A stretch of DNA of 64,000 nucleotides from Minisyncoccia bacterium. Lineage in GTDB: Bacteria > Patescibacteriota > Minisyncoccia > Phycocordibacterales > Phycocordibacteraceae. A program made the translations under genes and the position numbers. Each line of letters begins with the position of its first letter. Within the stretch, counting starts at the first letter, position 1. The notes under the pieces are model-generated. The model did no database searches. It was not told the origin of the DNA and was given only the letters and a program-made list of their open reading frames with translations. The stretch lies in assembly GCA_038212075.1 (NCBI GenBank), contig JBBQUV010000004.1, forward strand, positions 12,317 through 76,316, in the 5' to 3' direction. Shown piece after piece: positions 4,516-23,357 of this stretch.

Positions 4516-6171
4516 ATGAAGCCTTATGTAGCACTCGGAGTTCGCAATAGGACGCTGATGGAGGGGTATGGTCTTCTTGATTCCTATAAGCGACAGATAC
4601 CGGGTACGAAATGTCAGATAGAGAAGGCGCTCGACGTCGGAGAAGGGTACGCGGTGCGCCTCTGTCACAATGTTGAGGACAGGGCTCGTATTAGAAAGAT
4701 AATGGAAGAAGAGGTCCGTGCTGGCATATATACGCAAGAATTCTTCGACGCTATAGATACGACTTATAAAGATATAGTCAAAGATTTGAAATTCTTCGAG
4801 GAAGTCGATTTTAGTTCCATTAGTTCCGACGAAGTCCTCGCGTATTTCGACCATTTCTATCAGCTAGTTGTTACGACGGTTCATCCGATGGTTCTCGGAA
4901 TTTACGCTTCCGACTTGCAGGATGTGTTCGAAGCGGAACTCAAAACAGCTCTTGGGAATGATGCAAACGATGAAGTAGTGCTCAGTCATACTGCACTTCT
5001 TCTTACCCCTACTCGTCTTATAACCGTCCAGAAGGAAGAACAGCGGCTCTTTGAGATACAGGATCGTTTTGAGCACGAATATCCCTCAGGAACGGACGAG
5101 CAGTACGAAATCTGGAGTAAGCAACCCGATGCAGCTGTATTATTCGATACTCTTGTCACAAATCTCGGTTGGTTCCATATGGAATACCTTGGCGAGCCGC
5201 GTACCGCCGAGGAATATCAAAAGCAGATCGGAGAGCGCATCGCTGATCTCCGGAAGGCGGGGATCGAATGGACAACCCAGCAATCTCCGAAAGCACGTCT
5301 TGAAGAGCTGACGGGCGAACAGAAAGCATTTTTCGCTCGCCACTCTGATACCGCTCTACTGCAAGCGCTTGTCTTTACGATGCAGGAATATCTCATCGTC
5401 CTTGATTTCTCTAAAGCCGATCTCATTGAGGGATTGTATTATTCGAGACCCCTTCTTGCTGAGCTCGGCAAGCGCGTCGGACTCGATTCGTGGATAGACG
5501 TTCGTTACCTTACGCTGGAAGAATTGCGCGCATTCATACACGAGAAAAGGATAGTGAATAAAGACTACATCCGGGAGCGCAAGGAATACTGGACTGCGCT
5601 ACTTGAGGACGGTGTCATCAGTCTCACGTACGGTAGAGAAGCGCGTGAACTTACTGATCGGATTCTCGAGAAAGATGAGGTTACTGATACAAAAGAGTTC
5701 AAAGGGCTTTCCGCATATCCCGGAGTTGTCCGGGGAATTGCGTGTGTAGTAACTTCAGCTAAGGATCGCGACAAATTTAAACAGGGACAGATACTCGTGA
5801 CCGTAGATACGACAACGGAGCTTACATCTATTATCAAAAAATCCGCCGCCATCGTCGCGGACCAGGGAGGTTTGCTTTCCCATACCGCCATCGTTTCCCG
5901 CGAGTTCAAGATTCCGTGCATCGTCAGAACGAAGATAGGTACGAAGCTTGTGAAGGATGGGGATGAGATCGAAGTAGATGCTGGTAAGGGCATTGTCCGG
6001 ATCCTTAACCAGAGAGAAAAGATTCTGCTATGCTTGCTGTATAACCAAAACTATTTATGGAACAAGGCTTCAGGCATACATACGCGGAAGGGAACGAGAA
6101 GGCTCCGAAGGCATTTCATCTTCGAATGCATATCTTCCGACATGGGAAGAAGGACGGCCCTCATGACGTGA
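4516..6171 (+). CDS. PEP-utilizer swivel-domain paralog: helical linker region plus C-terminal phosphohistidine domain, no ATP-grasp.
   Basis: C-terminus GQILVTVDTTTELTSIIKKSAAIVADQGGLLSHTAIVSREFKIPCIVRTKIGTKLVKDGDEIEVD. The upstream linker (LTLEELRAFIHEKRIVNKDYIRERKEY...TKEFKGLSAYPGVVRGIACVV) aligns with the corresponding region of gene 1. The motif LGWFHMEYLGEPRTAEEY is shared with genes 1, 7 and 8. Confidence 0.75.
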   Translation: MKPYVALGVRNRTLMEGYGLLDSYKRQIPGTKCQIEKALDVGEGYAVRLCHNVEDRARIRKIMEEEVRAGIYTQEFFDAIDTTYKDIVKDLKFFEEVDFSSISSDEVLAYFDHFYQLVVTTVHPMVLGIYASDLQDVFEAELKTALGNDANDEVVLSHTALLLTPTRLITVQKEEQRLFEIQDRFEHEYPSGTDEQYEIWSKQPDAAVLFDTLVTNLGWFHMEYLGEPRTAEEYQKQIGERIADLRKAGIEWTTQQSPKARLEELTGEQKAFFARHSDTALLQALVFTMQEYLIVLDFSKADLIEGLYYSRPLLAELGKRVGLDSWIDVRYLTLEELRAFIHEKRIVNKDYIRERKEYWTALLEDGVISLTYGREARELTDRILEKDEVTDTKEFKGLSAYPGVVRGIACVVTSAKDRDKFKQGQILVTVDTTTELTSIIKKSAAIVADQGGLLSHTAIVSREFKIPCIVRTKIGTKLVKDGDEIEVDAGKGIVRILNQREKILLCLLYNQNYLWNKASGIHTRKGTRRLRRHFIFECISSDMGRRTALMT

Positions 6172-6950: not shown

Positions 6951-8527
6951 ATAAGAACCTTGAATGGTTCTGGGCGCACCGGAGGAATTCAAGCCTTCAT
7001 CATATGAGTTTTCTTATGCGTGGACTCGCAGGGAAGGGGTGGGCGCCCGCGGTTGATTTCTGGTTTGATAATCAGGCGTTTGTGGGCGTTCCTGGTAAAG
7101 GAATTTATATCTTTTACGATAAGCATCAGCTTTCGTCAGAGGGGAAATACAAGGATGTACAGGAAAGTATCGATAAAAATCCGGATTTTGTAGGAGATTT
7201 CAAGAAACGTACCGATGAATTATTCGGCGCAATATTTGCGAGCTGTAAGCAGATTGATGCCGCGGACCTGGTCGCCTTTACGGATACAGAACTCGAAGCA
7301 CTCTACGTCGAGATACTCTCGAGTTTGATGATTGCACCGATTATCTCGGTCCAGCTTTGGGGTATTGAAGCATGTTTCGATGAGAGCTATCGTATTATTC
7401 GTTTCTTGCGTTCACGGCTTGAGGAACTCCATAAGAGTCGAGATTTTGATACCTACCGCGGGTTACTATCTGTGAACACAGGCGAGACCGTTGCTTTCAC
7501 CGAGCAGAAAGATTTCTATGGCGTTGCGGCTCAGATAGCGCGCGTGCCTGAACTCGCCATTTTATTCGCTGGTGAAAATACTGCGAGTGCAAGTACTGCA
7601 TTAAAACGTTTTCCGAAAGAGGATGCGCTTTTTACCGGACATGTCTCAAAATATGAGTGGATGCATTCGGAATATGTTGGGCATGCATGGTCGCGTGAAA
7701 AATGGATAGCACTCTTTCAAAAAGCATTCCGGGAGACCTTAAGGCCAGAGGAGAAGCTTAAGGAACTGCTTGAGAATTTTGCCGAACAGAACGCGGAGCG
7801 AAATAATGCGATCGCAGAATTGTCACCACCACCGGACGTACTTCATGCCATAGATGCGCTCGGTGAATTTATTGCACAACGTGATTGGACCAAGGGATAT
7901 TTTACGAAGATACTGCTCAGTTATCACAAACTGCTGGACGAGATAGGTCGGCGTCACGGTCTCGCGCGCACAGAGCTTTTCGACTACTCATATATCGAGG
8001 TTCAGGAACTTCTTGCTTCTGGCAACAGACTTTCAAACGAAGAACTCAAAAGTCGTAAGCAAGATGGTTTCGCTGTAGTAATTACGGGAGGTGACTTCAA
8101 TCTTACGACTGGTAAGGATGCAATTGCTAGTGTCATCAACACGGAAGGATTGGCTGAGCCGTTTGAGAAATATATGAACGTCTCAGAATTCAAGGGACTT
8201 GCCGCTTCGCGCGGGCACATCACCGGGAAGGCGAGAGTACTTGAAGATGCTTCACGGATTTCGGAACTTCAACCCGGAGAGATACTGGTAACATACATGA
8301 CGACGATTGAATTTATCCCGGCTTTCCGAAAGGCCGCCGCCGTAGTGACAGACGAGGGCGGCATGTCGTGTCATGCCGCGATCATTAGTCGTGAATTCAA
8401 GCTACCTTGCGTGGTGGGAACAAAAGTTGCCACAAGAGTGGTGCAAACGGGCGATACGCTTGAGGTAGATGCGATCCACGGAATTATAAAGATACTTGAT
8501 TCGGCAACACCGTCTGACGCTGTATAA
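6947..8527 (+). CDS. PEP-utilizer swivel-domain paralog: N-terminal helical domain plus C-terminal phosphohistidine domain.
   Basis: C-terminus GEILVTYMTTIEFIPAFRKAAAVVTDEGGMSCHAAIISREFKLPCVVGTKVATRVVQTGDTLEVD. The linker LARTELFDYSYIEVQELLASGNRLSNEELKSRKQDGFAVVITGGDFNL...GHITGKARVL parallels the gene 1 linker, and WMHSEYVGHAWSREKW matches the shared motif. ATGA overlap with the upstream gene. Confidence 0.75.
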   Translation: MNKNLEWFWAHRRNSSLHHMSFLMRGLAGKGWAPAVDFWFDNQAFVGVPGKGIYIFYDKHQLSSEGKYKDVQESIDKNPDFVGDFKKRTDELFGAIFASCKQIDAADLVAFTDTELEALYVEILSSLMIAPIISVQLWGIEACFDESYRIIRFLRSRLEELHKSRDFDTYRGLLSVNTGETVAFTEQKDFYGVAAQIARVPELAILFAGENTASASTALKRFPKEDALFTGHVSKYEWMHSEYVGHAWSREKWIALFQKAFRETLRPEEKLKELLENFAEQNAERNNAIAELSPPPDVLHAIDALGEFIAQRDWTKGYFTKILLSYHKLLDEIGRRHGLARTELFDYSYIEVQELLASGNRLSNEELKSRKQDGFAVVITGGDFNLTTGKDAIASVINTEGLAEPFEKYMNVSEFKGLAASRGHITGKARVLEDASRISELQPGEILVTYMTTIEFIPAFRKAAAVVTDEGGMSCHAAIISREFKLPCVVGTKVATRVVQTGDTLEVDAIHGIIKILDSATPSDAV

Positions 8528-8534
8528 TTTTTGC

Positions 8535-9959
8535 ATGAATAAAACCGATATTTTAGAGAAGAAATGGATTAACTATGGACGGTGGACACAGCCGACCATT
8601 TCAGGCGCCTTTTGGACACACTGGGATGAAGCAGAGTGCGCGCGTGAAGTAAGTCAGGACTCTCCGCTCCCGGCGATCGTATTCCTCGACGGGTACCATC
8701 TTACTCCTCTGGATGAAGACCATGCAGTGAAGACTTATTTTAATAAACGATACAGCGAAGGAACGCTTGGAGAATTTCTTGAGAAATTTGAGACATCATC
8801 AAAGAAAAGCGAAGCGCGGATCCTTGCGATTCTTGGCAATACGATGCTTTCTAATGCTGAATACGCACGAGAGCTTTTTGCTGCCTTTCTCGAGGTTGTT
8901 GGCGCGTGGTCATTCCTTTTCCGGTTCTCCACGTCACTTGAAGAAATCGCACGCGAACAAGGACTAGCTGTAAGTGACGACGATATCTTGCGGCATATGC
9001 GTCCCTATACCCGCGTTACGTTGCTCGAGCAGCAGACCATTGAACTTAAAGAATTCGCGCGGGCATTGCGTGCGCAATACCCAGCTATTCCAGTAACAGA
9101 ACTCACTAAACATGTAATGGATGACGCGTCGACGCCCCTTCTCGCTAAAATTCATGATCATGTTCAGGAATTTTCCTGGTTTGGCACACATCACTGGGAA
9201 GGAGAGCCCTACACGCTCGAAAAATGCCTTTCTGATATTCAAGACATACTGAATAAGGGAGGGGATGTGGAAGAGGGATCAGTTGCCGTATCGTCGAGCG
9301 AAGGCGATCAGACCATATGGAAACTTCTCGCAGCTTTTGCATATTGGCGCACCCACTGCGCAGAAGTGAGTGACAAAGCGGCATACCTTTCGCGTGAACG
9401 ACTTACGGATGTGGCAAAGAAATGGAGTATTACCTACGAGGAGCTTACTTGGCTTTCAAGTGGAGAGATTATAAAAGCGCTTGATATAAGTGAGGACTCT
9501 ATTGAGCTCCCCACAAACTTTGCTGAACGAAAAGCTGGATATGGGGCATGGGTTGATAACGGTGTTGAGCATATTGTTGTTGGTGCAGAACTCGCCACAC
9601 TCATTGATGCGGCTGTTCCAAAAGTTGATACTTCCGTGTCTGAGATTAAAGGAACTGTCGCAAGCAAGGGTGGCGTAATTACCGGTATCGCACGCATCAT
9701 TATGGGGCCAAGTGAATTTGCCAGTTTTGTCGCGGGAGATATTTTGGTCGCAAACGAAACCACACCAGACTTCGTTCCGCTTATGAAAAATGCCGCGGCA
9801 ATTGTGACTGATACGGGCGGCATTACTTCTCACGCGGCAATTGTTTCTCGTGAGCTTAAGAAGCCCTGTGTTATAGGCACCAAAATCGCAACGAAAGTAT
9901 TCAAAAATGGCGATATGGTTGAAGTGGATGCAATTAACGGAATTGTCCGAAAGATATAA
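8535..9959 (+). CDS. PEP-utilizer swivel-domain paralog: N-terminal helical domain plus C-terminal phosphohistidine domain.
   Basis: C-terminus GDILVANETTPDFVPLMKNAAAIVTDTGGITSHAAIVSRELKKPCVIGTKIATKVFKNGDMVEVD. The linker LTYEELTWLSSGEIIKALDISEDSIELPTNFAERKAGYGAWVDNGVEHIVVGAE...GVITGIARII and the motif FSWFGTHHWEGEPYT match the others. Confidence 0.75.
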   Translation: MNKTDILEKKWINYGRWTQPTISGAFWTHWDEAECAREVSQDSPLPAIVFLDGYHLTPLDEDHAVKTYFNKRYSEGTLGEFLEKFETSSKKSEARILAILGNTMLSNAEYARELFAAFLEVVGAWSFLFRFSTSLEEIAREQGLAVSDDDILRHMRPYTRVTLLEQQTIELKEFARALRAQYPAIPVTELTKHVMDDASTPLLAKIHDHVQEFSWFGTHHWEGEPYTLEKCLSDIQDILNKGGDVEEGSVAVSSSEGDQTIWKLLAAFAYWRTHCAEVSDKAAYLSRERLTDVAKKWSITYEELTWLSSGEIIKALDISEDSIELPTNFAERKAGYGAWVDNGVEHIVVGAELATLIDAAVPKVDTSVSEIKGTVASKGGVITGIARIIMGPSEFASFVAGDILVANETTPDFVPLMKNAAAIVTDTGGITSHAAIVSRELKKPCVIGTKIATKVFKNGDMVEVDAINGIVRKI

Positions 9960-19062: not shown

Positions 19063-20631
19063 ATGTTTTGGGCAGACCGCGTTGCTAAAGAGATTCAAGA
19101 TACCCGCGCACAAAGCGGGAAGAAACTGATTATCCGCGACGAAAAAACTCTCTCCGGTCGTGTGCATATTGGTGCTATGCGTGGTGTTGCTATTCATGGC
19201 ATTGTGAACGAAATCCTTACCGAATACGGCGTAGAAAACGAATACCTCTACGAACTTAATGACTTTGATCCCTTTGATACGGTGCCGGGTTATTTAGATC
19301 AAGAGACATTTAAAGAACATTTGGGTAAACCATTGTATGCAGTGCCGTCACCAGAAGCAGGATATGAAAACTACGCTGAATACTTTGGCGCTGAATTTGT
19401 AGCGGTGCACAAAAAAGCAGGGTTTATGCCGGCCTACTACCGCACCTATGCCGATCTCTACAAGGCGGGAAAGATGAACGATCTTATTCGTACGGCTCTT
19501 GAACGCGCCGCTGACATCCGCAGGATTTTAAAAGATGTTTCCGGTTCTGTAAAAGATGAGTCGTGGCTTCCTGTTTCGGTTGTGTGTGAGGAGTGCGGAA
19601 AAATGATGACCACGCGTGCGTTTGATTTTGATGGAGAAACCGTTGGCTATGCCTGCGATAAAAACCCCGATGGTGCCGTATCGTGCGGGCACACGGGACG
19701 ACTTGCTCCATGGGATGGTGCCGCAAAACTTTTTTGGAAGGCAGACTGGGCGGCAAAATGGGTGGCAAAGAAAGTAGATGTTGAAGGCGCGGGTAAAGAC
19801 CACTCCACCAAGGGTGGTGCTCGCGACGTGAGCAATCATATTGCACGGGAACTATTTGGATTTGCTTCACCGTTTGATATTCCCTACGAATTTTTCCTTG
19901 TTGGTGGTGCAAAAATGTCTTCGAGTAAAGGAAGGGGAACATCGGCAAAAGATATGGCGGAACTGTTTCCGTCGCAGATTCTGCGTCTTATTTTGATTGG
20001 TAAAGACATCAATCAGCAAATAAATGTGGATCCTTCCGGAGATTCTGTTCCTCGTATGTACGATTGGTACGATGATCTTGCCGAACAGGTACGAAATGGT
20101 GTTGAAGACGACTATGCGCGGCTATTCACGCTTGCCCAGCTTCCCGACGCTCGAGCAAATGTGACTGCGCCATGGATGATGCGATTCCGTGAAGTGGCAT
20201 TCATTGTGCAAATGCCACATCTTGATTTGACGCAGGAAGCGAAACGCGCAAAGGGAAGTGAACTTTCTCCGGAAGAAACGCGCGCGCTTGGTGAACGAGC
20301 AGAATATGCAAAATTCTGGCTTGCTACCTATGCACCGGAAGAATTTAAATACGTGCTTCAGGAAACGTTTCCAGTGGTTACGTTGTCAGACGTACAAAAG
20401 AACGCACTCTCTCTTTTGTATACGTTTATGAACGAAGCGCCACGTACGGGCGAAGAGGTGCATGCAAAATTGCACGAACTTAAAACCGTAGCCCCAATTG
20501 CACCAAAGGAATTATTTACTGCGCTCTACGGTATTTTCCTGAATCGTGAATCCGGACCAAAGGCAGGATGGTTTTTGTCGGTGCTTCCACGTGACTTTGT
20601 GCTCGCGCGCTTGAAAGAAGCTATAGGATAA
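19063..20631 (+). CDS. lysK: Lysyl-tRNA synthetase, class I (archaeal-type LysK).
   Basis: Class I HIGH-type motif in SGRVHIGAMRGVAIHG and KMSKS-type motif KMSSSKG. It has the Rossmann-fold class I architecture, not the class II LysS anticodon-binding OB fold. Confidence 0.82.
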   Translation: MFWADRVAKEIQDTRAQSGKKLIIRDEKTLSGRVHIGAMRGVAIHGIVNEILTEYGVENEYLYELNDFDPFDTVPGYLDQETFKEHLGKPLYAVPSPEAGYENYAEYFGAEFVAVHKKAGFMPAYYRTYADLYKAGKMNDLIRTALERAADIRRILKDVSGSVKDESWLPVSVVCEECGKMMTTRAFDFDGETVGYACDKNPDGAVSCGHTGRLAPWDGAAKLFWKADWAAKWVAKKVDVEGAGKDHSTKGGARDVSNHIARELFGFASPFDIPYEFFLVGGAKMSSSKGRGTSAKDMAELFPSQILRLILIGKDINQQINVDPSGDSVPRMYDWYDDLAEQVRNGVEDDYARLFTLAQLPDARANVTAPWMMRFREVAFIVQMPHLDLTQEAKRAKGSELSPEETRALGERAEYAKFWLATYAPEEFKYVLQETFPVVTLSDVQKNALSLLYTFMNEAPRTGEEVHAKLHELKTVAPIAPKELFTALYGIFLNRESGPKAGWFLSVLPRDFVLARLKEAIG

Positions 20632-20635
20632 AAGA

Positions 20636-20665
20636 AAAGAGCGGCCTTGTAGGTCGCTCTTTGTC
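20636..20665. terminator. Bidirectional hairpin terminator between lysK (+) and the convergent minus-strand ORF.
   Basis: gagcggcc (20639-20646), loop ttgta, ggtcgctc (20652-20659). It is flanked by an A-run upstream and ttt downstream. A nearly identical hairpin recurs at about 21100. Confidence 0.5.
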
Positions 20666-20688
20666 GATTGCGCCAACGCAATCGGTGG

Positions 20689-20979
20689 TTAGTCATCTCG
20701 CGTGAGCCAAAGTCGAGTATGGTGCCCTAGGGCGGCATCGTACTGCGGATTTGTGTGATAGACGCCTGCCATCGTGAGTGCTGGCGTCGTATTCGATTCA
20801 TTGGCTGTAGAGCCGTTCGTCGTCTCAGGTGTGTTACTTTCCTGATTCCTGTCTTCAATGTGCATAGCTACCTCGCATTGTGTTGACTGCTTTATAGAGG
20901 ATCTAAAAAGCCAAATCCCCGTACCGTTTCCGGTCGGGGACTTGCGCGAGGTCTCTTTCTTTTTTTTAGAACGAGACAT
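20689..20979 (-). CDS. Low-complexity hypothetical ORF (about 96 aa, MSRSKKKKETSRK...). Coding status uncertain.
   Basis: ORF on the minus strand. Its ATG lies inside copy 1 of the 94-nt repeat. The sequence is S/T/N-rich with no recognisable family. Confidence 0.3.
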   Translation of the reverse strand: MSRSKKKKETSRKSPTGNGTGIWLFRSSIKQSTQCEVAMHIEDRNQESNTPETTNGSTANESNTTPALTMAGVYHTNPQYDAALGHHTRLWLTRDD

Positions 20980-21066
20980 CAAGCAAAACCCCGACCTTTC
21001 GTAGAAGGACGAGGTGAGAACGCACGATAATTGCTTGATGAACCATACCTACGAATCTATCAGTTC
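20973..21066 (-). repeat. Copy 1 of a ~94-nt structured repeat (leader-like element) containing an 11-bp inverted repeat.
   Basis: Aligns with 21733-21826 at roughly 75% identity. Internal inverted repeat catcaagcaa (20977-20986) / ttgcttgatg (21031-21040). Inner hairpin CCUU-N6-AAGG in the minus-strand RNA. Confidence 0.6.
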
Positions 21067-21096
21067 AAAAAGTATCGTCAATCTATGGTGTGTGGA

Positions 21097-21131
21097 TGTA
21101 AAAAAGAGCGGCCTTGCGGGTCGCTCTTTTC
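21097..21131 (-). terminator. Hairpin terminator of the 21151-21609 minus-strand gene.
   Basis: agagcggcc ttgcgg gtcgctct followed, on the minus strand, by a T-run. A near-duplicate of the 20636-20665 hairpin. Confidence 0.5.
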
Positions 21132-21150
21132 ACTCTGTAAGGTTTTCACC

Positions 21151-21609
21151 TTATATGCACGCTGGATTTCGCCGTGCCCGTTGCTCAAAACCAGCGGGTA
21201 TGTCCCGACCGATTCGTGCATAGTGGGTACGCTCTAGTTCCTCCTGTAGTTCTTGTTCAGTGTGAGGAAAGACAGCAACACAGTACTGTGCCATACCTGT
21301 CCACTGCGGTTGCTGGAACATTCCTTCCTGAATTTCTTCAGGGGTGAGTTCGTAAAGAACAGAGCCTTCCGAAGCCGCATGATTGGGAACGCGATGTGCG
21401 GCGAAGAGGGCAATGCGGATACGAGTCCCTTCTTTTTCCAGCGTGGTTGGATGGATGTAGGGTTCGGTCATCGTCGCATCATCGATGAGTAACCGTTCGG
21501 TGCTACAACCGATAGTCACCAGAAAACGGCGAGCACGTTCTCCGATGTGGTCACCTTCGTACGCCACATATCGGATACGGCGCTCGTCTTTTGTCGCTAC
21601 GGGTGTCAT
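21151..21609 (-). CDS. Hypothetical protein (about 152 aa).
   Basis: The best start is the ATG at 21609 (MTPVATKDERRIRYVAYEGDHIGERARRFL...), preceded by GAGAGGT. The ORF-track version uses an upstream TTG. No family recognised. Confidence 0.45.
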   Translation of the reverse strand: MTPVATKDERRIRYVAYEGDHIGERARRFLVTIGCSTERLLIDDATMTEPYIHPTTLEKEGTRIRIALFAAHRVPNHAASEGSVLYELTPEEIQEGMFQQPQWTGMAQYCVAVFPHTEQELQEELERTHYARIGRDIPAGFEQRARRNPACI

Positions 21610-21663
21610 TTCTACCTCTCGTTGCTTGAGTGTTGGAAAGATCATTCCTGCCCCTAAAAGCAA

Positions 21664-21712
21664 GCGAGCCTCCGGACCTTTCGGTCGGAGGCTCGCTTCA
21701 TGTTTCTTTCTT
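21664..21712 (-). promoter_or_regulatory. Perfect 11-bp hairpin plus U-rich tract in the 5' leader between repeat copy 2 and the 21151-21609 ORF. Attenuator or terminator-like.
   Basis: gcgagcctccg (21664-21674), loop gacctttcggt, cggaggctcgc (21686-21696). On the minus-strand RNA it is followed by UUGCUUUUAGGGGCAGGA, then the ORF start region. Confidence 0.4.
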
Positions 21713-21732
21713 ATGCCCGCACTGGCTGGAGA

Positions 21733-21826
21733 GAGACATCAAGCGAAACGCCGACCTTCGTCAGAAGGCCGAGCCAATACGTAAACCACGTTGCTTGATG
21801 AACCATGGGTGAATCGTACCAGTTCC
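21733..21826 (-). repeat. Copy 2 of the ~94-nt structured repeat.
   Basis: Aligns to 20973-21066. Inverted repeat catcaagcg (21737-21745) / ttgcttgatg (21791-21800). Inner hairpin CCUUC-UGAC-GAAGG in the minus-strand RNA. Confidence 0.6.
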
Positions 21827-21968
21827 CCTCAGTCTGTCAAAGTCCAAACTTGTGTGGATAACCATTGGGGAAGTGGGGTAAAGTGTCATATACTTGTGTA
21901 TTAGTGGGAGGAAGTGGGAAACACAGGTATGTCCTGCGTTTCCCGGGTTCTCCTCAAAAAATCTTTTT

Positions 21969-22403
21969 ATGTTTATCGGCGAATATCGTCACACCTTTGA
22001 TCCTAAAAATCGTATTTCGCTACCAGCGAAATTTCGCAAGGAGCTTGGTCGGACGGTCGTCGTGACCCGCGGTTTTGATACGTGTCTTTTTGTGTATCCA
22101 AAAAAAGCATGGGAAAAACAAGCGGCAAAAATTGCCGCATATTCAACCGGTAACGCCGCTGGCCGCGGTATTGCGCGCCTTATGCTTGCCGGCGCAAGTG
22201 AAGCAGAAGTAGACAGTGCCGGACGTATCCTCGTTCCGGACTATTTGAAGAAATTTGCATCACTCAATGTGAAAACAGTTGTGGCTGGTGTAAACGACCG
22301 TGTGGAAGTGTGGGAAGAAGGTGCGTGGGATACGTACACCAAAACTATTGAGCGTGATGCTGACCGGTTTGCTGAAAAACTGGGTGACGCAGGCGCCTTC
22401 TAA
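21969..22403 (+). CDS. mraZ: Transcriptional regulator MraZ.
   Basis: MFIGEYRHTFDPKNRISLPAKFRKELG, plus a second half with ...DSAGRILVPDYLKKFASL (duplicated MraZ/SpoVT-AbrB-type halves). First gene of the dcw-like cluster. The ORF-track start at 21894 is an upstream in-frame extension. Confidence 0.85.
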   Translation: MFIGEYRHTFDPKNRISLPAKFRKELGRTVVVTRGFDTCLFVYPKKAWEKQAAKIAAYSTGNAAGRGIARLMLAGASEAEVDSAGRILVPDYLKKFASLNVKTVVAGVNDRVEVWEEGAWDTYTKTIERDADRFAEKLGDAGAF

Positions 22404-22406
22404 TAT

Positions 22407-23357
22407 ATGAAGTCCGGACACACAAGCGTGCTCTATGAAGAATCACTGAAAGCACTTTGCGTGCGCCCACAAGACGTAGTGCTTGATGCTACGGTGGGCG
22501 GCGCAGGACATTTTCGCGGATTGCTGTCGTCGCTTTCAAATGACGGCGTGCTCATTGGTATTGATGAAGACGCCAACGCGATTGAACGTGCGCGCGAAGT
22601 GGTGGCAGAAGACCGCCGCTCTGATAGGCCAGTGGTGCATTTGATGGAAGATAATTTTAGAAATATTGGCCACGTGCTTGAGCGCCTTGGCATTAGCCAT
22701 ATTGATAAGGCACTTTTTGATTTGGGGTGGAGCGGTTTCCAGTTGTCTGATGGCAAGGGTTTTTCATTTCAAGCCGACGAACCGCTTCTTATGACGTATG
22801 GCAATCCGGAAGTGCATGGTTCAGCGGCAGAGCTCGTGAATACCATGCCAGAAGAAGAGCTAGCAAAACTGATTTTCATTTACGGTGAAGAACGATTCGC
22901 CCGACATATTGCAAAAGCAATTTGTCGCGCACGCAGTACGGCTCGTATTCTTTCAACACAAGATTTGGTGGCGGCTATAAACGCAGGCGTGCCAGCGTGG
23001 TATCGCACCCGTCGCACGCATCCTGCAACAAAAACGTTTCAGGCGCTTCGTATTGCCGTGAATGACGAACTTGGTGCGCTTGAAGAAGGACTTCGTGGCG
23101 CTATACAGCACCTTGGTGCGGGTGGGCGCATCGCGGTTATCACCTTTCATTCTATTGAAGACAGAATAGTGAAATCTATTTTCCGCGATGCTGTCGCGGA
23201 AGGTACGGGTTCTGTGGTGAATAAAAAAGTAATTACCCCTTCCTACGAGGAATTGAAACTGAATCCGCGCGCACGCAGTGCAAAACTGCGCATCTTTGAA
23301 TCAAACGAACGAGATGAACCTGTTTCTGCACTTCCTCACGAACTGATGTATGCATAA
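22407..23357 (+). CDS. rsmH: 16S rRNA (cytosine1402-N4)-methyltransferase RsmH (MraW).
   Basis: HTSVLYEESLKAL...LDATVGGAGHFRGLLS is the SAM-binding region. Length 316 aa. Directly downstream of mraZ. Confidence 0.9.
   Translation: MKSGHTSVLYEESLKALCVRPQDVVLDATVGGAGHFRGLLSSLSNDGVLIGIDEDANAIERAREVVAEDRRSDRPVVHLMEDNFRNIGHVLERLGISHIDKALFDLGWSGFQLSDGKGFSFQADEPLLMTYGNPEVHGSAAELVNTMPEEELAKLIFIYGEERFARHIAKAICRARSTARILSTQDLVAAINAGVPAWYRTRRTHPATKTFQALRIAVNDELGALEEGLRGAIQHLGAGGRIAVITFHSIEDRIVKSIFRDAVAEGTGSVVNKKVITPSYEELKLNPRARSAKLRIFESNERDEPVSALPHELMYA

Follow-up and report, generated by a model that had tools for sequence, protein, structure and literature searches.

Introduction

The trp, his and related operons are the classical cases of transcription attenuation by leader peptides, and leaders of the erm, cat and tet(M) type encode leader peptides that respond to antibiotics or translation stress. 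OFF-type transcriptional riboswitches consist of a 5′ domain closed by a helix, P1, and a downstream terminator. The bmrB-bmrCD system has a leader peptide and three stem-loops that are alternatives to one another, among them an intrinsic terminator (PMC4191407), and the mycobacterial 'Cys ribulon' comprises attenuators built on leaderless short open reading frames (ORFs) (10.1101/834739). Here, we describe a structured repeat that is present in two copies between the lysK and mraZ genes of a Minisyncoccia bacterium, within a stretch of 64,000 nucleotides (nt) of contig JBBQUV010000004.1 (assembly GCA_038212075.1, positions 12,317 to 76,316 of the forward strand), to which we refer as the window, and we propose that each copy is the 5′ cassette of a small minus-strand unit that may act as an attenuator. 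To our knowledge, almost nothing is known about gene regulation in the Patescibacteria.

Each cassette would consist of a sigma-70-type promoter, a leaderless or near-leaderless ORF of 26–31 codons (the mini-ORF), four RNA segments (regions 1–4), and the Shine-Dalgarno (SD) sequence and start of a lineage-specific gene. As in the trp and his attenuators, the four segments can pair 1:2, 2:3 or 3:4, a short ORF lies over segment 1, the 3:4 hairpin is followed by U residues (here in the window copies), and segments 2 and 3 are the best conserved. The cassette differs from them in having neither tandem regulatory codons nor an SD sequence for the short ORF, which would start at the 5′ end of the transcript, crosses segments 1 and 2, and stops in the 2–3 loop; moreover, the regulated gene is apparently not biosynthetic, and there is no sequence homology. 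With leaders of the bmrB, erm, cat and tet(M) type it shares a small ORF that harbours alternative stem-loops including an intrinsic terminator (putative here), a hydrophobic peptide, and a proposed induction through ribosome stalling instead of shortage of one amino acid. In contrast to these leaders, the gene downstream encodes an uncharacterised α/β protein and no known resistance determinant, initiation would be leaderless, and no recognised stalling motif is present.

The Cys ribulon resembles the cassette, as predicted here, in that a leaderless polycistronic mRNA opens directly with a short, unannotated ORF, and in that the position of the ribosome on this ORF is proposed to remodel the downstream RNA. 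The cassette has no run of codons, however, and what competes in it is a terminator-like hairpin, with a ribosome-binding-site layer only hinted at. Like OFF riboswitches, the cassette has a P1-closed domain, the 3′ strand of which is shared with an antiterminator, and a terminator-like hairpin downstream, whereas its junction nucleotides are unconserved, it has no Rfam match, and a conserved ORF runs over the whole of what would be the aptamer. The cassette is best classed as a new, clade-restricted example of a known control device and not as a new kind of biology. It is not included in the curated RNA families, and what is unusual about it is an apparently leaderless mini-ORF that spans the whole anti-antiterminator.

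Two homologous cassettes in the window

The repeats are flanked by genes for a class I lysyl-tRNA synthetase (lysK) and by mraZ-rsmH, and LysK homologues place the organism in the Patescibacteria (Paceibacterota, former Parcubacteria). An original prediction, made from the sequence of the window, described two structured repeats of ~94 nt and about 75% identity. The plus-strand segments 20973–21066 and 21733–21826 are indeed identical at 74 of 99 alignment columns (75%), with a pairwise score of 41 compared to −12 ± 4.6 (maximum 2) for 500 shuffles. Only two sites, both within the repeats, match a 27-nt core pattern, for which chance would give 0. The similarity covers the ~94 nt first described, but the homology is really ~240–260 nt long, extending with 77% column identity from a −35 box to the ATG of a downstream ORF, where it ends. 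Read along the minus strand, it contains in order a promoter-like site, the helices P1 and P2, a linker, a second GC-rich hairpin, and GAGGT-N4-ATG.

P1 is formed by the inverted repeat CATCAAGC...GCTTGATG (CAUCAAGC / GCUUGAUG on the minus strand). It is present in both copies, although instead of the 11 bp first reported it has 10 bp in copy 1 and, in copy 2, an uninterrupted 8 bp. P1 closes an internal loop and the inner hairpin P2 (CCTTC...GAAGG, or CCUUC...GAAGG in RNA), which had also been recognised correctly in both copies. Together, P1 and P2 constitute the predicted minimum free energy (MFE) fold of the minus strand, with z-scores of −5.95 (copy 1) and −3.95 (copy 2) relative to shuffled controls. 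The placement of the copies in the 5′ region of minus-strand units is borne out by a conserved promoter ahead of the element. The downstream ORFs do not begin inside the element, and the ORF of 96 codons noted there is not the gene: both downstream ORFs sit behind a conserved GAGGT and start at ATG 20865 (58 residues) and ATG 21609 (152 residues). The copy preceding the 58-residue ORF (W1, unit 1) and that preceding the 152-residue ORF (W2, unit 2) are mutually closest relatives, with an identical 16-mer and a common peptide start, MVHQA, and the cassette is duplicated in tandem in this genome.

A small family at one variable locus

A covariance model built from the two window copies (R1) was run on the lysK neighbourhoods of the closest relatives and on contig L163. 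This search, of the kind suggested with the original prediction, found five additional copies in close Paceibacterota relatives with E-values of 1e-14 to 4e-24, bringing the family to seven copies on six contigs. The copies score 87.9 bits in L157, 96.8 bits in L158, 88.7 bits in L159 and 61.7 bits in L162, where LysK is 79%, 77%, 76% and 74% identical, respectively, to that of the window; the fifth (L163, 84.3 bits) is on a short contig with a close variant of the L158 gene and no visible neighbours. L157, L158 and L159 have their copy in the interval from lysK to mraZ, divergent from mraZ, and in L162 it is located just downstream of lysK, mraZ being absent among the called genes of that contig. 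The element is missing from L155, where lysK is directly beside mraZ, from L160 and L161, which have NUDIX-like genes, and from L164, which has other ORFs. The −35/spacer/−10 arrangement is the same in all seven copies.

An improved model (R2) detected no further copies in the 64-kb window, which contains only the two adjacent ones, or in ~85 kb of relatives, each of which carries one copy, at the same locus where this is visible. Thus, the element is a small clade-restricted family at one variable locus and not a dispersed repeat. The proposed Rfam search returned no family at the gathering score across the window, and nothing relevant at E-values up to 10 within 20000–22600. Exact-pattern scans gave 32 matches in GTDB species genomes, all in coding or unrelated sequence, 10 in IMG/VR, none of them real, and 112 in a metagenome collection, none fitting R1 or found in a P1/P2 context. 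Scans for exact patterns have low sensitivity, so that these results from the collections do not show absence of the element.

Two mutually exclusive folds

Covariation, which the original prediction had proposed to examine once more copies were available, is present in two alternative folds. The statistics derive from a seven-sequence alignment (A9), which was fitted to fold A by the covariance model and represents one narrow clade. P1 and P2 contribute their 5′ strands to region 1 and their 3′ strands to region 2; region 3 consists of the linker and the 5′ arm of the GC-rich hairpin (hairpin 3), and region 4 of its 3′ arm. In fold A (P1, P2 and hairpin 3), 96.7% of cells are paired over the seven copies, compared to 32–54% in slid controls. 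Five pairs are changed on both sides, and there are compensatory changes in P1 and P2 and three compensatory pairs in hairpin 3. Fold B is a 20-pair helix of region 2 (3′ strands of P2 and P1, with linker) and region 3, with 97.8% of cells paired (slid controls 23–57%) and two compensatory pairs. The two folds are mutually exclusive and can be adopted by every copy; A9 column 79 covaries with its partner in each of them, which is column 9 in fold A and column 114 in fold B.

For transcripts truncated at the end of region 3, the MFE structure is fold B in all seven copies, by 8–18 kcal/mol, and for the full-length leader of the window copies the MFE structure is fold A with hairpin 3. With region 1 blocked in constrained folding, the 2:3 helix forms in L158, L159 and L162. 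Mean pairwise identity is highest in region 2 (85%) and region 3 (80%), as dual pairing in both folds predicts, followed by region 4 (66%), region 1 (58%), the tail (37%) and the loop (32%). The P1–P2 internal loop and the P2 loop vary in both sequence and length, and region 1 carries indels.

The ATG at 20979 and 21739, originally regarded as the start of a leader peptide or upstream ORF, is replaced by ATA or ATT in the relatives, and the G is a paired, covarying position in both folds; it is therefore not a conserved start codon. As a separate observation on that reading frame, in six of the seven copies the P1 3′ strand and region 3 are 47, 50, 53 or 56 nt apart, always 2 modulo 3 (A9 columns 72–133; window region 20729–21756). 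These steps of three leave the frame (TTG-ATN...TGA) open with a conserved terminal UGA in five of seven copies, and its peptide is not conserved.

A conserved mini-ORF at the predicted transcript start

The mini-ORF is in a different frame and starts ~65 nt further 5′. Its ATG (A9 columns 3–5) is invariant in all seven copies, with variable neighbours, and is situated 6–9 nt past the −10 hexamer in each of them. Because of this short distance, the transcript would be leaderless or near-leaderless. The frame of 26–31 codons is open in every copy, with stops in the other two frames, and the distance from the ATG to a conserved AAGGUCGG anchor is 45, 48, 51 or 54 nt, all multiples of three. The mini-ORF spans P1/P2, with codons 3–16 overlying the 5′ strands of both helices, and terminates in the loop between regions 2 and 3, 13–20 nt before hairpin 3. 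The mini-ORF of L162 was independently called as a gene by an annotation pipeline.

The encoded peptides, such as MVHQATWFTYWLGLLTKVGVSLDVSLQPVRA and MGYQAFWFISVFALLLMKVGDSLDISLQRA, are hydrophobic in their first half and carry KVG-SLD-S in the second. Their best 13-residue hydropathy window reaches 2.48; the hydrophobic stretch is ~13 residues long and, in copy 1, is broken by R, H, R and K. Conservation is limited to loosely kept QA(F)WF and KVG-SLD-S motifs, the latter encoded by the doubly paired region 2. No family in Pfam or NCBIfam matches the peptides, including any toxin or leader-peptide family. The probability of the frame being open by chance alone is ~0.09, to which three independent in-frame indels add ~0.04; the statistical support for the mini-ORF is moderate. 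For the same genome pair, pS (synonymous differences per site) is 0.23 in the mini-ORF compared to 0.64 in the downstream gene, so the leader evolves more slowly than the synonymous sites of that gene.

Proposed attenuation mechanism

Starting from what the computations establish in silico, namely the repeat and its family, the conserved promoter, both covarying folds, and the conserved ORF with its geometry, we favour, with roughly even confidence, an interpretation of each cassette as a ribosome-mediated (leader-peptide) attenuator of the trp/erm/bmrB type. Transcription would start at or close to the ATG of the mini-ORF, which would then be translated. If no ribosome stalls, regions 1 and 2 would fold first, after which 3:4 (hairpin 3) would form and, in the window copies, cause termination together with its U-rich tract. 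A ribosome that reaches the stop codon in the 2–3 loop would cover region 2, likewise leaving 3:4 free to form. A ribosome held early in the mini-ORF, on region 1, would instead release region 2 to pair with region 3, and this long helix would preclude hairpin 3 and permit read-through into the downstream gene. A presumed stalling signal would, in this scheme, increase downstream expression. In L158 and L159 the output may instead be translational, since the CU-rich P2 5′ strand pairs with the downstream SD sequence in some predicted folds, although this complementarity is partly trivial. A cis-regulatory structured RNA with a leader peptide was among the original suggestions; the family, the covarying folds and the promoter favour it, while the particular ORF and ATG then chosen have been replaced by those of the mini-ORF.

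Several observations weigh against attenuation by a translating ribosome. The pair counts come from alignments fitted to the model's own structure, with only seven sequences from one narrow clade. A convincing U tract past hairpin 3 is seen only in the window copies (six U in nine nt in W1; UUGCUUUU in W2); L157 and L162 have a weaker tract, and that of L158, L159 and L163 is poor (GUUAUGG or GUUAAGG). Hairpin 3 was not among the terminator-like sites that a consensus scan listed for the window, L158 and L159. Length changes in steps of three are also found in the non-coding linker, which weakens the argument from in-frame indels. The ratio of nonsynonymous to synonymous differences (pN/pS) in the mini-ORF is 0.3–1.3, without third-position bias, but neither pN/pS nor the corresponding ratio of substitution rates (dN/dS) is informative here, as the synonymous sites are base-paired and subject to the overlapping RNA constraint. 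The peptides contain no run of regulatory codons and no recognisable arrest motif. Finally, the mini-ORF has no SD sequence, and its translation would require leaderless initiation, which is assumed for this lineage.

The same two-state switch could be operated without translation, either as a riboswitch or through a protein, tRNA or small RNA that reads the attenuator by stabilising P1/P2 or the alternative helix, and the mini-ORF would then be incidental. The conservation of both folds with covariation would fit such a switch, as would the weak coding statistics. Further, a P1 that closes an internal loop and P2, followed by alternative helices, is the typical layout of an OFF riboswitch, and the nearly invariant sequence of P1 might represent a protein-binding site. 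However, the would-be ligand pocket, the P1–P2 internal loop, is among the least conserved parts, region 1 is poorly conserved and tolerates indels, and no Rfam family matches even at E-values up to 10. A switch of this type would also leave unexplained the conserved ATG at the predicted transcript start and the frame kept open in all seven copies, and we consider it unlikely.

That frame could alternatively encode a functional small hydrophobic protein, either similar to a type I toxin or a membrane partner of the downstream protein, with the folds controlling its own translation or stability. Peptides of 26–31 residues with a hydrophobic N-terminal half, retained in every copy, would be compatible with this, and type I toxin transcripts are typically highly structured with alternative folds. 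Yet the hydrophobic stretch is short and interrupted by charges in copy 1, no toxin or leader-peptide family is matched, and consensus scans of the window, L158 and L159 found no antisense promoter-like or terminator-like site opposite the element. A small protein gives no reason for an alternative helix that competes specifically with hairpin 3, and we regard it as a quite improbable explanation.

Genes downstream of the cassette

Little or no similarity can be detected when the ORFs that follow the cassette in W1, W2 and the relatives are taken together. Those of L158, L159, L162 and L163 are clearly homologous, with the motif LF-SEGRYPS...IPEW in common. The L157 ORF joins this SEGRY family with an hhalign E-value of 5e-5, and the 152-residue protein of the window joins it weakly (E = 0.014). 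A dN/dS of 0.09–0.19 among L158, L159 and L163 places the family under purifying selection and shows that the downstream genes of the relatives are real. A profile search with the family identified no members beyond these few genomes. AlphaFold, supplied with a five-sequence alignment, produced a confident α/β model with a predicted local distance difference test (pLDDT) score of 80.8, for which no significant match was found in the PDB or among the viral structures of BFVD. The 152-residue protein retrieved only itself from 5.8 billion clustered proteins (word-indexed search) and from 1.8 billion representatives (HMMER), and had no match in Pfam, NCBIfam, PADLOC or PHROG; looking up its exact sequence, or that of LysK, led to no contig. 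The 58-residue ORF of unit 1 is of low complexity, rich in N, T, S and E, with no family match, no homologue, and no relic similarity to the SEGRY family; it may not be a real gene, or may be a degenerate or de novo ORF.

Conservation is greater in the RNA cassette than in the ORFs behind it, and the cassette has its own promoter and a strong 3′ hairpin, as expected if the ~150-nt transcript from promoter to hairpin 3 were a stand-alone trans-acting small RNA, with the downstream ORFs expressed by leakage or independently. The similarity between the window copies, however, extends past hairpin 3 to GAGGT-N4-ATG and ends exactly at the start codon, the relatives keep a homologous gene under purifying selection directly downstream, and a trans-acting RNA has no need of a conserved helix that excludes its own terminator. 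Such a role is thus very unlikely. A functionless local duplication of a gene start, or a mobile repeat resembling a miniature inverted-repeat transposable element (MITE), both raised originally, is scarcely credible: the window copies are mutually closest and occupy a variable spacer with an IS1595 transposase nearby in L162, but orthologous copies under structural constraint exist in other genomes, so that duplication is rejected as the full explanation, and neither the window nor the ~85 kb of relatives' loci contains dispersed copies, the collection scans gave only chance matches, and the unit is not flanked by target-site duplications or terminal repeats.

Implications

If leader-peptide attenuation does operate here, a classic ribosome-coupled mechanism with a leaderless sensor ORF would function in reduced genomes. 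It would also provide a handle on a rapidly diverging gene family beside a cell-division operon, whose confidently predicted α/β fold has no structural match, and a natural RNA, compact and with two states, as a candidate expression switch for organisms that are hard to engineer. The likely annotation is also corrected at the start sites of two ORFs and supplemented by two unannotated mini-ORFs.

A more far-reaching possibility, which we consider quite improbable, is that episymbiotic Patescibacteria have in this cassette a new class of sensor, in the form of an arrest element or of a bifunctional RNA. In the first form, arrest dependent on the nascent peptide or a ligand might allow the leaderless mini-ORF and the two-state RNA to read a signal such as a host metabolite, a translation inhibitor or the state of the membrane. 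In the second, a bifunctional RNA might encode a small protein and also switch a fast-evolving accessory gene beside the division/cell-wall (mraZ) operon, possibly under control of MraZ or DnaA through the adjacent GTGTGGATAA box.

Feature map and surroundings of the locus

The positions of the elements of both units, and of the SEGRY-family genes, are listed in Table 1.

Table 1. Predicted elements of the two minus-strand units in the window, and SEGRY-family genes of the relatives
Feature	Sequence	Positions	Strand	Details
Unit 2 promoter-like site	window	21813..21840	-	TTGACA, 16-nt spacer, TG-n-TACGAT; 10/12 matches, extended -10
Unit 2 mini-ORF	window	21711..21806	-	31 codons + stop, MVHQATWFTYWLGLLTKVGVSLDVSLQPVRA; ATG 6 nt past -10 box
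Unit 2 fold A (anti-antiterminator)	window	21737..21800	-	P1 21800-21793 with 21744-21737; P2 21774-21750
Unit 2 fold B (antiterminator-like helix)	window	21683..21756	-	region 2 21756-21729 with region 3 21710-21683
Unit 2 hairpin 3	window	21654..21698	-	arms 21698-21686 / 21674-21662, perfect 13 bp; then UUGCUUUU; putative terminator
Unit 2 downstream gene	window	21151..21609	-	152 residues; SD GAGAGGT at 21620-21614
Unit 2 gene-end hairpin	window	21102..21131	both	93% identical to 20635-20662
Unit 1 promoter-like site	window	21054..21081	-	TTGACG, 16-nt spacer, TG-n-TAGATT
Unit 1 mini-ORF	window	20966..21046	-	26 codons + stop, MVHQAIIVRSHLVLLRKVGVLLDVSF; ATG 7 nt past -10 box
Unit 1 fold A	window	20977..21040	-	P1 21040-21033 with 20984-20977; P2 21014-20990
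Unit 1 fold B (antiterminator-like helix)	window	20932..20996	-	region 2 20996-20969 with region 3 20959-20932; 29-nt arms
Unit 1 hairpin 3	window	20903..20943	-	hairpin 20943-20913, then GGCUUUUUAG; 6 U in 9 nt; putative terminator
Unit 1 downstream ORF	window	20689..20865	-	58 residues, low complexity; SD GAGGT at 20874-20870
Gene-end hairpin, bidirectional	window	20634..20665	both	common to lysK (+) and unit 1 (-)
SEGRY-family gene	L158	2579-3064		
SEGRY-family gene	L159	3942-4433		
SEGRY-family gene	L162	6602-7006		
SEGRY-family gene	L163	376-861		
SEGRY-family gene	L157	7678-8064		

As originally described, each unit is closed by a near-identical hairpin (20635–20662 compared to 21102–21129, 93% identity), and these gene-end hairpins read as terminators on either strand. 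In unit 1, a run of A8 directly follows the stop codon of the mini-ORF; on the plus strand, this segment (20936–20966) forms a terminator-like hairpin with a T tract, a feature that is missing from all the other copies.

The spacer between lysK and mraZ (window 20632–21893; compared in L155, L157–L162 and L164) is a variable slot. It is empty in L155, the closest relative, which has no leader, and contains the leader with a SEGRY-family gene in L157, L158, L159 and L162, NUDIX-like genes in L160 and L161, and ORFans in L164; a GtrA-like gene is found beside the P0008 lysK. The IS1595-type transposase of L162 lies near the slot at 8008–8889. L155 also has a 340-residue gene with no Pfam match between greA and lysK (4855–5877, minus strand), which is absent from the window.

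Upstream of mraZ (window 21848–21925, plus strand), GTGGG-type repeats come after GTGTGGATAACC, which on the opposite strand reads as the exact DnaA-box consensus TTATCCACA. This block is kept in every relative inspected (L155–L164), whether or not the leader is present, and a degenerate copy of it lies ahead of the unit 1 promoter (21086–21099). The block could act as an operator for MraZ or as a DnaA box and also touch the leader promoters.

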